A stretch of 64,000 bases of DNA. Source: a virus. Taxonomy: Duplodnaviria; Heunggongvirae; Uroviricota; Caudoviricetes. The first letter of the stretch is position 1. Each line of letters begins with the position of its first letter. The stretch spans positions 32,001 to 96,000 of the IMG/VR virus record IMGVR_UViG_2630968933_000007; one strand, written 5' to 3'. Positions 9,001 through 12,000 of the stretch are shown one piece after another. Position numbers: made by a program.

Positions 9001-12000
9001 TTCTCAGGGTAACCTGAATATTGGTGGCCTTTTTAGTGTTACGTCGCAGGGGCAACTGACAATTCGTTACTCTAATCAGAATGTTGGGCTGGTGATCCGC
9101 AATGATAAAATTGAAGTTTATGACCAGAACGGACGCCTGGCTGTTCGCATAGGCAGGTTAAGCTGATCCGGAGGCTGACATTGGCAGAATATGGTTTTGC
9201 AATATACAACAGAAACAATGTTAATGTTACGGGCGTGCTTACTCCCATATTTTTCCTGGACAGGTTTACGGCGGAGTCGGGATCAAAAACGTATACGAAT
9301 AAACCAGAAGGGAAAACATTGCAGGCAGTCTGTTCATTATTTCCGTGGAATAATGTATTTAAGGACCGGAAAGTACCGAAGATAACCATTAATGGCAATA
9401 CGGTGACGTGGTCGAATCTTGAGCAGGGGATGGGGTCATATATTTATACATTCTGGGGGTGAGTTGTATGTATGGTTTAAGCATTACGAAACCAGATGGC
9501 AGCTTGTGGATAAGCCCGGGGTTTACGCCTCAGTGTCTGATCAATAAGGGAACTATTCCGGCGACTGAGAAGGCTTTTTTTAAAACATCAATCCCGTCAG
9601 GAAAAAGTTGTTTTTTCTTTATCAGAACAGAGAAAAAGGCCGATGTCATGTACACACATGAACAGATTGATGGATATCATGCCTTAAGGCTTCATCAAAT
9701 TGTCAGGGGAACGAATCCTGGTGTTACGACTGTTTATGCTTTTGCGAATATGGTTACTCAACCTTCTGAGTATGGTATTGCCATGTATAACCCGTCGGGT
9801 GAGATGATTTACCATGGCGAAATGATGCTGCTTGACGCGAAGTTAATACCTGTTGATATCAAATTTGAAAAAGATCTCGGATATCCATGTGCAATTATGC
9901 CTGCACTGGTTGGGTATTATAACTGGCAGCGTACACCTTATGACCGACCGATTTACACCACATCAACGGGGGCTACAGGAAATAAAATATATTCCTGTGA
10001 GCATTATTCCGGTCGTGCAACATGGGATATTCGGAAGCCGTATATAGATAAAGTGCTGGTCATTAATTCATCAATATATGACTGATATGCCTGTCAGTAT
10101 GAATATTAAGTAATAAAACTAAATTCATCTTAGATAATACGGGGTTATTTTATTATAGGAAAAGTCTAAAAATGAAACATGCCAGAATTATTTTTGCGTG
10201 CACAACTTTTGTGATGAGTTTTGTAGCAGCCCCTGCCTGTGCAGCACAAGGTGACAGTACAGTTTCTTTCGGATACGCTCATCTTCAGCTCTCTGGACTG
10301 AACAATTTTGTTAAGGATTTAAGTCTTTATAATCTTGATACTTTTAACCGTTTTACAAACAGACACTACTTCAATTCAGGCGAATATGCAGATGCTTCTG
10401 TCCGGGGGCATGATGGCAAAGGCAAATCTCCTCAGGGGATGAGCATCAGGTATCGTTATGAGATAACGGATGAGATTGGTGTTATAACATCTTTTACATG
10501 GGCGCGTTCTATGACTAATGCGCAGGCATTTATTGATATTAACCCAGGAGATGAATCCAGAGAGGTTAAAAATCCGGCAGCTTCAGCGAGAACTGATATC
10601 AGGGCTAATTACTGGAGTCTACTATCCGGTCCTTCGTGGCGGTTTAACGAATACCTCAGTGTGTATGCAATGGCTGGTATGGGGGTTGAAAAAGTCACCA
10701 CTGACTTGAAAATTAACGACAATCTTAATCATGGTGCCGGTAGTTTTTCTGAAAGCAAGAGTACTAAAAAAACAGCACTTGCATGGGCTGCTGGTGCACA
10801 ATTTAACCTGAATGAAAGTGTTGCTATGGATGTCGCGTATGAAAGCTCCGGATCCGGTGACTGGCGCACGAGTGGGGTTATTGTAGGCATTGGCCTGAAA
10901 TTCTGAGTAATACCCGACAACATGTCATAACCCGCTGTGATGGCGGGTTTTTTGTTGCCCGTGCAGGGCAAAAATCGTAGATTATGCGCGGGTGCCTTTC
11001 GGCTGATGGCTGGAAGGTGAACCTGAAGGCCTGATGTGGAAAGGCCCCGAGTCAACTTTAACGTTAACCCGAGGCCCTGACACTTCTTTCCTTGAAAGTA
11101 GAAGGTTAGCGCCTCTCCACTCAGGAGGCAAGCGCTATGTCGCAAAAATCGCTTATCACCGTCACAATTTGCATGACGGTAATCTTCACCATCTGGATGT
11201 TACACGGTTCGCTGTGTGAGTTCCGGCTGAATTTGTGGGGAGCGGAGTTTGCGGCGTTCTTACAGTGTAAGCAGTAGGAAAACCGCGACGGGGACGAAAG
11301 TCCCCGTCAACTGGTTGCTGAGGTTCAGCCGATATGGCACCCGTTTCAGGTGAGAGAATGGACGACAAAATTCTCCGGTATATGCAGCGTGTTGTGAGAA
11401 ATTCCCGCAACCCTGAATTTATGAATGAAGTTAAAGACGCCTGCCTTAAAAAGCAGGCGTTTTGCTTTGAAGCGCCGGATGGTTTTCTGGTGCTGCGTTC
11501 TGTGCTCAGTGACGATGGTATCCCTTATGTTCTGGTGTTACTGGGCGTGTGTACGGGGAGTAAGAGTGTTGAGCGTTATCTGCCGGAGGTGAAGACATTA
11601 ACCCGCCTGGCTGGCGGACGCTGGGCCGAATTTCATACGGCAAGACGAGGATTTATCCGGCTGGGAAAACGTCTGGGCTTTGAGCGAATGCCGGATGATG
11701 AGGATGGCTTCATGGTGTTCAGGATAGCAGTCTGACTGCCACTGTATTCATCATCGAGCGTAAACCCACATTGCAATTCACATTCTGACCCTGCTCCGGC
11801 AGGGTTTTTTGTTATCTGAGGAGCCATTATGGGCGGAAGTAAAGGTGGTGGTGATACCAAAGTAAAACCAACAGCAGCGCAAATAGCACAGGAAGAGGTG
11901 GCCTGGAAAGGGTGGCAGGATTACAAAAATATTCTCCGTCCGGCAGAAGATAACTTCATGAAAAAGGTCGATGACCTTAACAGTGAGCAGCAGTACGAAA

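Follow-up and report, generated by a model that had tools for sequence, protein, structure and literature searches.

A probable intact hok/sok-type toxin-antitoxin cassette beside lom in a 933W-like prophage

The mRNAs of hok-type type I toxin-antitoxin (TA) modules are defined by closure of a 5' tac element onto a 3' fbi element (PMC9841398), and a sequence logo of 1264 Hok peptides is marked by a cysteine and a threonine in the transmembrane (TM) helix, an L-C-E motif and a downstream glutamate. The closest described systems are hok/sok (parB) of plasmid R1 and hokW-sokW of Sp5/933W (Takada et al. 2021, PMC8621323); in O157:H7 Sakai, 14 Hok/Gef genes have been counted (Fozo et al. 2010, PMC2887945). 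Here we analyze a hok locus adjoining lom in a 64,000-nt stretch of Caudoviricetes DNA (the window; IMG/VR record IMGVR_UViG_2630968933_000007, positions 32,001 to 96,000). With good confidence, we read this locus as an intact hok/sok-type type I TA cassette of ~390 bp (10955-11342), carried as a moron between lom and an L0129 homologue in a 933W-like prophage. The peptide family, the conserved RNA pairings with their covariation and the conservation of promoter elements were computed here, and toxicity is taken from the literature.

The toxin gene and its setting

10172-10906, upstream of hok: lom, an Ail/Lom barrel gene (profile match)
11137-11277, plus strand: hok-family toxin open reading frame (ORF) of 46 aa, with one predicted TM helix followed by an SLCE-R...E-AAF motif

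The first-pass annotation had pointed to the 46-aa ORF for its single TM helix followed by LCE-R...E-AAF, and the ORF is present as described. Its translation is MSQKSLITVTICMTVIFTIWMLHGSLCEFRLNLWGAEFAAFLQCKQ. A Pfam search, proposed as a check, returned PF01848 (HOK_GEF) at 33.2 bits against a gathering cut-off of 22 (E 4e-8), the alignment spanning profile positions 6-42 of 42, and PHROG 251 ("MokW-like host killing") matched at 85.8 bits (E 2.8e-24). All conserved Hok residues (C12, T14, L26-C27-E28 and E37) are there. C12, T14, C27 and E28 are invariant across the Hok peptide alignment; the TL-2011c-type copy carries H in place of L26 and Q in place of E37. The gene adjoining lom is a genuine Hok-family membrane toxin, and the original assignment to a type I toxin gene is upheld; its mRNA is structured in the hok manner. 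The best NCBIfam model, the HokA equivalog NF007290, scored 38.4 bits, far short of its cut-off of 89; the peptide is therefore Hok, yet not HokA, and identity with HokA was dropped, a name ('protein HokA') that some sources give it. The hok gene has a strong Shine-Dalgarno (SD) sequence of its own (GGAGG, 11124-11128), with 8-nt spacing to the start. An in-frame N-terminal extension of Hok in the style of mokC or mokW was sought by reading the sequence and was not found: a TAG within an invariant AGGTTAG stops it in the window, and a TAA in 933W, for which the scan of upstream starts gave none in any frame.

The cassette lies in the late region of a prophage of the 933W-like short-tailed type (Sepvirinae), in the order lom, hok and then homologues of L0129, L0130 and L0131. 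The 501 bp surrounding the ORF are present in 1553 of 5426 complete E. coli genomes, in which RefSeq labels the ORF "Hok/Gef family protein" (WP_000078907.1), with a translation identical to that of the window. The ORF is carried by 198 phage records, 129 of them with the identical peptide, and the exact 46-aa peptide occurs on at least 1000 contigs. The description of the gene as unannotated holds for old records such as that of 933W (AF125520), in which the ORF at 45660-45797(+) was left without annotation between lom and L0129, but not for RefSeq/PGAP or for several phage records, which label it Hok/Gef, "MokW-like host killing" or "prophage host toxic membrane protein".

An alignment-based search for the locus found 7 loci, including three (L008, L009 and L011) on contigs labelled Xanthomonas pisi, Planococcaceae metagenome-assembled genome and Vagococcus sp. 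These are near-identical enterobacterial hok cassettes, L011 encoding the P88 Hok peptide, and the contigs probably reflect contamination or mis-binning instead of true hosts.

The identical peptide is also entry 72_1589 of the high-abundance cluster 72 in a 2025-26 catalogue of Hok homologues, where a pAZ3-72_1589 clone (strain LRP157) places it behind a constant SD and an arabinose promoter. The available text of the catalogue reports 42 of 45 constructs as toxic on induction and names three exceptions, 72_1589 not being among them; the same text places Sok, mok and mRNA structure outside its analysis (bioRxiv 10.1101/2025.08.07.668861). The locus is not new: the family is known, the gene is annotated, the catalogued peptide is reported toxic, and the module is of an ordinary TA kind; the basic picture is unchanged, with family, peptide and mechanism class all known. 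A search for literature specific to the lom-adjacent locus returned nothing, and its regulatory anatomy, its patchy mok frame and its presence as a second toxin in hokW studies are unreported in the searchable literature.

The hok mRNA and its antisense strand

The elements of the predicted mRNA are as follows.

10955-10983, plus strand: putative hok promoter, read from the sequence (-35 TTGCCC at 10955-10960, 17-nt spacer, -10 TAGATT at 10978-10983)
10990-10999, plus strand: tac element GGGUGCCUUU at the predicted mRNA 5' end; pairs with fbi in full-length RNA and can pair with ucb in truncated RNA
11040-11048, plus strand: ucb-like box AAAGGCCCC, predicted from the Rfam consensus structure and the fold to hold GAGGCC (11071-11076) in the closed form
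11110-11128, plus strand: local hairpin in which an anti-SD/dcb-like box, CGCCUCUCC (11110-11118), sequesters the hok SD GGAGG (11124-11128)
11287-11308, plus strand: GC-rich stem-loop of 9 bp, GACGGGGAC-GAAA-GTCCCCGTC
11325-11342, plus strand: fbi element, composed of UCAGCCGA (11325-11332) and GGCACCC (11336-11342)

The functional unit comprises an RNA module of ~355 nt (10990-11342), or ~390 bp with the promoter (10955-11342). It is wider than the 11034-11330 first proposed, with a predicted mRNA +1 near 10990 and an fbi element ending at 11342. Rfam RF01794, which is named sok and is in fact a model of the hok-sense leader ending at the hok AUG, aligns from this predicted +1 and matches 10990-11148 end to end (model 1-157; 35.6 bits, E 1.5e-5). 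The minimum free energy (MFE) of 10990-11350 is -155.2 kcal/mol (z = -5.5 versus shuffles). Thus, of the GC-rich structured leader initially described, the structure is borne out and the base composition is only mildly GC-rich (55% versus 49% for the window). In the MFE fold, GGGUGCC (10990-10996) pairs with GGCACCC (11336-11342), and UCGGCUGA (10999-11006) pairs with UCAGCCGA. The ucb-like box is complementary to tac save for one bulged U and is invariant across the alignment of relatives. CCUCUCC (11112-11118) occludes the hok SD, and GAGGC (11071-11075) can compete for CCUCUCC after tac captures ucb.

To assess conservation, we aligned the copies of the window, 933W, P88 (P2-like), TL-2011c, Salmonella enterica, S. 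diarizonae, E. albertii and Citrobacter braakii (10 relatives). The leader and the 3' untranslated region are near-invariant, while the Hok coding region falls to 54% amino acid identity; the tac sequence is unchanged in 9/9 informative relatives. Standard pairs were found in 90% of cells, compared to ~40% with partners slid, and 19 pairs had changed on both sides, compared to 3-12 in the slid controls, with none of 500 shuffles reaching 19. Note that the structure was taken from the window's own fold, which biases the slid control in its favour; the double-sided changes weigh more as evidence. The 7-bp core of tac/fbi (helix 1) is invariant and the adjoining 8-bp helix 2 has 3 compensatory pairs. 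Pairing reaches 86-98% of cells in the anti-SD hairpin (helices 7 and 8), 98.5% in a helix of 13 pairs that joins codons 33-38 to the region of the hok start, and 98.9%, again with 3 compensatory pairs, in the hairpin at 11287-11308 (helix 18).

Among unrelated phage backbones (Sepvirinae and P2-like), homology begins at the -10 box and ends directly after fbi, which identifies the hok mRNA with its promoter as the mobile unit. The cassette offers a clean case of a hok module moving whole, from promoter to fbi, between short-tailed Stx-type and P2-like phages.

Both promoters were assigned by conservation and homology, not by the promoter scanner. The putative hok promoter overlaps the T-tail of the lom terminator (hairpin 10929-10949) and agrees with the consensus at 8/12 positions, which is under the scanner threshold; its -10 reads TAGATT, TAAATT, TAGAAT or TAGAGT in relatives. 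A search for an antisense Sok-like promoter, proposed with the original prediction, identified a conserved TTGCCT-17-TAACCT opposite the leader, which the scanner left unreported.

11103-11131, minus strand: putative sok promoter (-35 TTGCCT, reverse complement of 11126-11131; 17-nt spacer; -10 TAACCT, reverse complement of 11103-11108)
11036-11097, minus strand: predicted Sok-like RNA of ~60 nt, with ends estimated from fold and conservation

The sok -10 TAACCT is invariant in 10/10 aligned relatives. The -35 varies among TTGCCT, TTGACT, TTGCTC and TTTACT, with a spacing of 17-18 nt. On the sense strand, the stretch of the sok -10 is involved in the pairing AGGTTAGCGCC. In an alignment of this leader with a hokW-type leader elsewhere in the window, the AGGTTAG element coincides. 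In the promoter-less sokW of Takada et al., primer YO-421 changes TAGGTTAG to CCGGCTCG (PMC8621323); its target aligns with AGGTTAG, so that TAACCT has as its homologue a sok -10 that was inactivated by experiment. The predicted Sok has a single-stranded 5' tail complementary to 11079-11097, then a 16-bp hairpin (reverse complement of 11041-11078) and UUUCC. The antisense strand folds at -32.7 kcal/mol (z = -6.2), compared to -18.0 kcal/mol (z = -2.1) for the sense strand of the same segment, and the hairpin is kept in 8 relatives with invariant U-G pairs that are C-A mismatches on the sense strand. Such a difference between the strands points to the antisense RNA as the structure under selection. 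Conservation and folding thus make a Sok-like antisense gene opposite the leader likely.

The hairpin at 11287-11308, at first taken to be terminator-like, exists, but a terminator role is the less likely one: there is no T-run after it on the plus strand and it lies upstream of fbi. It is probably a 3' stem that guards the processed, active hok mRNA from exonucleolytic trimming; an R1 analogue of such a protective stem is described (PMC9841398). The P88 and Salmonella copies have a canonical terminator ~20 nt after fbi.

In the window, the next terminator-like site (11437-11468) lies inside the annotated L0129-like ORF (11334-11735). It is a strong hairpin, listed for both strands at 11437-11470, ACGCCTGC-CTTAAAAA-GCAGGCGT then TTTTGCTTT, which gave a weak GlmZ 3'-end-like Rfam match; it might be the end of the full-length hok transcript or a sign of a mis-annotated ORF. 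The PHROG 610 match to the L0129-like protein begins only at residue 9, and the SD of ATG 11358 (AGGTGAGAG) is better than that of ATG 11334, the annotated start, which overlaps the hok fbi. The annotated L0129-like start is probably 24 nt too far upstream, and its overlap with fbi may therefore be an annotation artefact.

Control of hok translation and the upstream frame

From these elements we infer a Sok transcript with its ends, 3' processing of the mRNA, a mok-independent switch and a biological role, as follows. The weak promoter would give rise to a stable mRNA starting at ~10990. In the full-length RNA, tac would pair with fbi, ucb would hold GAGGCC and the anti-SD box would hold the hok SD, so that Hok is not made. 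Trimming from the 3' end to the 11287-11308 hairpin would remove fbi; tac could then pair with ucb while GAGGC competes for the anti-SD/dcb box, making the hok ribosome-binding site (RBS) cheaper to open. A short, unstable Sok-like RNA, transcribed from TTGCCT-17-TAACCT on the minus strand, would pair with 11036-11097 of the processed mRNA and keep the RBS closed, and the duplex would probably trigger cleavage by RNase III. When Sok synthesis stops, as when the element is lost, transcription is shut off or the prophage is induced, the 46-aa Hok would be translated, insert into the inner membrane and depolarize or kill the cell.

We calculated in silico the cost of opening the hok translation initiation region (-15 to +6), a measure more informative than unpaired probabilities.

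Window: full-length 14.3 kcal/mol; 3'-truncated 9.5; truncated with the Sok footprint blocked 13.5
933W: full-length 11.9 kcal/mol; 3'-truncated 6.9; truncated with the Sok footprint blocked 10.3
P88: full-length 14.8 kcal/mol; 3'-truncated 10.6; truncated with the Sok footprint blocked 16.1

As modelled, these costs fit a mok-free switch in all three variants. The fold with tac/ucb enforced lies 0.7 kcal/mol above the MFE of the truncated RNA; the MFE structure itself differs and the ensemble is mixed.

Several observations weigh against an intact, switchable cassette. A consensus promoter scan reported neither the hok nor the sok promoter, both being weak matches, and the RF01794 score of 35.6 bits is below the gathering threshold of 59. 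The ensemble of the truncated RNA is heterogeneous, and the unpaired probability of the SD (ViennaRNA) rises only modestly, from 0.02 in the full-length to 0.10 in the truncated form. Only 3 U follow the Sok hairpin, making termination there uncertain. The window is without the canonical terminator after fbi, which is replaced by the L0129-like gene. Finally, decayed copies exist: one (LC616044, Stx2_8243 type, in a group of Stx2a phages) has a +1 G frameshift at ~codon 35 and another (LC645443, EH2011) an 8-nt deletion after codon 3. Both keep the leader and 3' elements intact; not all copies are therefore maintained.

A rival reading concerns a longer frame upstream of hok, which the first-pass annotation had placed in the mok position.

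11034-11219, plus strand: mok-position ORF of 61 codons, starting at ATG(+44) with a weak SD (GAAGG, 11025-11029)
933W-type copies (identical Hok): upstream frame closed after 8 codons by a 1-nt deletion
P88-type copies: upstream frame closed after 19 codons
One S. enterica copy: no upstream frame
E. albertii: same ATG(+44), 79 codons
C. braakii and S. diarizonae: different ORFs upstream, running as far as the hok start

In a canonical hok/mok/sok arrangement, translation of the 61-codon ORF would open the hok SD hairpin, Sok would act by blocking mok, and the 933W-type copies would be silenced. We regard this as possible, if rather doubtful. The frame is present in the window: it begins upstream, runs across the hok SD and start codon and stops 83 nt inside hok, with ATG 11034 at the edge of the predicted Sok footprint. 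In R1, toxicity is lost when mok is stopped prematurely ahead of the hok SD (PMC9841398). Its SD is weak, however, while hok has its strong GGAGG at 8-nt spacing, and it starts upstream of ucb, whereas mokW starts after the GAGG box; there is no start codon here at the position homologous to that of mokW. The 61-aa product gave no family match in Pfam, NCBIfam or PHROG. Two leader patterns retrieved 29 complete cassettes from IMG/VR: 12 have the ATG(+44) frame with 61 or 79 codons, 13 have no upstream ORF and 4 carry a 42-codon frame that starts at TTG(+101/+102). The frame stays open in E. albertii and, despite numerous leader differences, in the 12 IMG/VR cassettes, and C. braakii and S. diarizonae reach the hok start from ORFs of their own, but it is closed in the commonest Stx-phage version, with an identical Hok, as well as in the P88 type, and copies in which the frame is closed, or absent as in one S. 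enterica copy, keep all RNA elements and the Hok ORF intact. Judged by sequence, the 11034 frame could act as mok here, yet its conservation does not extend through this Hok cluster. Such patchy occurrence supplies a natural test for mok-type coupling as an obligatory feature of the Hok family.

Returning to an intact cassette with its own switch, we tentatively suggest that a second hok/sok module, as yet uncharacterised, is present in Stx phages of the 933W/Sp5 type and in stx-negative relatives of these phages, and that it may function independently of mok. The GAGG box, which is the SD of mok in R1, would here survive solely to compete, as RNA, for the anti-SD, leaving 3' processing and Sok to act directly on the hok RBS, and the open or closed upstream frame would be neutral or a natural on/off polymorphism. 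Such a module could contribute to lysis-timing and phage-release phenotypes credited to hokW alone. That the locus is instead a decaying or silent hok remnant like several K-12 hok loci, its ORF intact by recency, never translated natively and without a prophage role, is improbable: the frameshifted or deleted copies in some Stx2a phages, the polymorphic mok, the missing terminator after fbi and a clearly dead hokW-type remnant in the same window would suit it, but the exact peptide persists in 129 of 198 phage records and on at least 1000 contigs, compensatory changes preserve the regulatory RNA elements from genus to genus, homology runs exactly from promoter to fbi in unrelated backbones, and the peptide is toxic on expression as far as the available catalogue text states (bioRxiv 10.1101/2025.08.07.668861).

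Other hok loci of the window and comparison with known systems

The window had been credited with two hok-family loci. The second, hokD, is confirmed, and there is a third element, bringing the hok-related loci to three: the intact cassette, a relBE-linked hokD and a leader truncated by an insertion sequence.

50537-50692, plus strand: hokD (51 aa; RefSeq: type I TA toxin HokD), downstream of relB and relE in a Qin-like prophage
47079-47250, plus strand: complete hokW-type leader (RF01794, 104 bits), 94% identical to the hokW/mokW/sokW region of 933W

The hokD gene belongs to a relB-relE-hokD operon, 49939-50692(+), flanked by flxA, ydfV and rem. The hokW-type leader, unannotated in RefSeq, stops inside the hok start codon (ATT, not ATG) at an ISNCY-family element (~47250) whose transposase ORF spans 47324-48637, and no Hok ORF follows it. 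This remnant, a possible orphan Sok gene, could still encode Sok. Other RNA features of the window include Rfam sRNA-Xcc1 matches above the gathering score at 26392-26477(-) and 26926-27014(-) (73 and 69 bits), close to where the 933W-like prophage should end on the right, a DicF small RNA at 42451-42502(-), and cspA-type thermoregulator leaders at 54096-54488(+) and 56998-57383(+). DicF and the cspA-type leaders are consistent with a Qin/lambdoid cryptic prophage carrying csp paralogues.

Compared to R1 hok/sok, the lom-adjacent locus shares a TM-helix Hok peptide with the conserved C, T, LCE and E, an mRNA closed by 5' tac and 3' fbi, the ucb, GAGG and dcb/anti-SD boxes, and a probable 3' protective hairpin upstream of fbi. 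The putative antisense promoter opposite the leader has the R1 form TTGnnn-17-TAnCCT. The R1 Hok has 52 aa and the lom-adjacent Hok 46 aa, with ~34% identity. R1 mok presumably starts after the GAGG box; the lom-adjacent locus has no start codon there, and its mok-like frame starts upstream of ucb and is unconserved. Unlike R1, it has its own strong hok SD inside the anti-SD hairpin and lies in a phage late region instead of on a plasmid.

Among named Hok proteins, HokA of E. coli K-12 scored best with the 46-aa peptide, showing 45% identity over 40 aa by tblastn with what we take to be the K-12 HokA sequence as query. The two fall into different catalogue clusters, 93 for HokA and 72 for the lom-adjacent Hok. 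Catalogue entry 72_1589 and RefSeq WP_000078907.1 are the identical peptide, the locus-level anatomy lying outside the catalogue.

The leader of hokW-sokW (Sp5/933W; Takada et al. 2021, PMC8621323) is homologous to the lom-adjacent leader, with the sok -10 TAACCT, tac, ucb and GAGGC boxes in common, and 933W carries both loci. In AF125520, hokW lies at 58614-58803(-) and the lom-adjacent hok at 45660-45797(+), ~13 kb apart on opposite strands. HokW is a 51-aa, HokD/HokC-like protein (catalogue entry 35_712, cluster 35, versus cluster 72), the hokW primers giving MKQQKAM... and ...VAVFVDYESEK, and hokW has an in-frame mok. Equating the lom-adjacent locus with the published hokW-sokW was dropped on the grounds of peptide length, distance, strand and cluster. 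Phages of the 933W type therefore carry two Hok loci, one of which has been studied at locus level. The experiments of Takada et al. left the lom-adjacent locus in place in their delta-hokW strains (PMC8621323), and the delta-hokW phenotypes were therefore measured with the lom-adjacent hok present. Thus, Sp5/933W-type phages hold two distinct Hok loci, of which hokW alone has been studied, a distinction that matters for annotation and for the reading of existing work.

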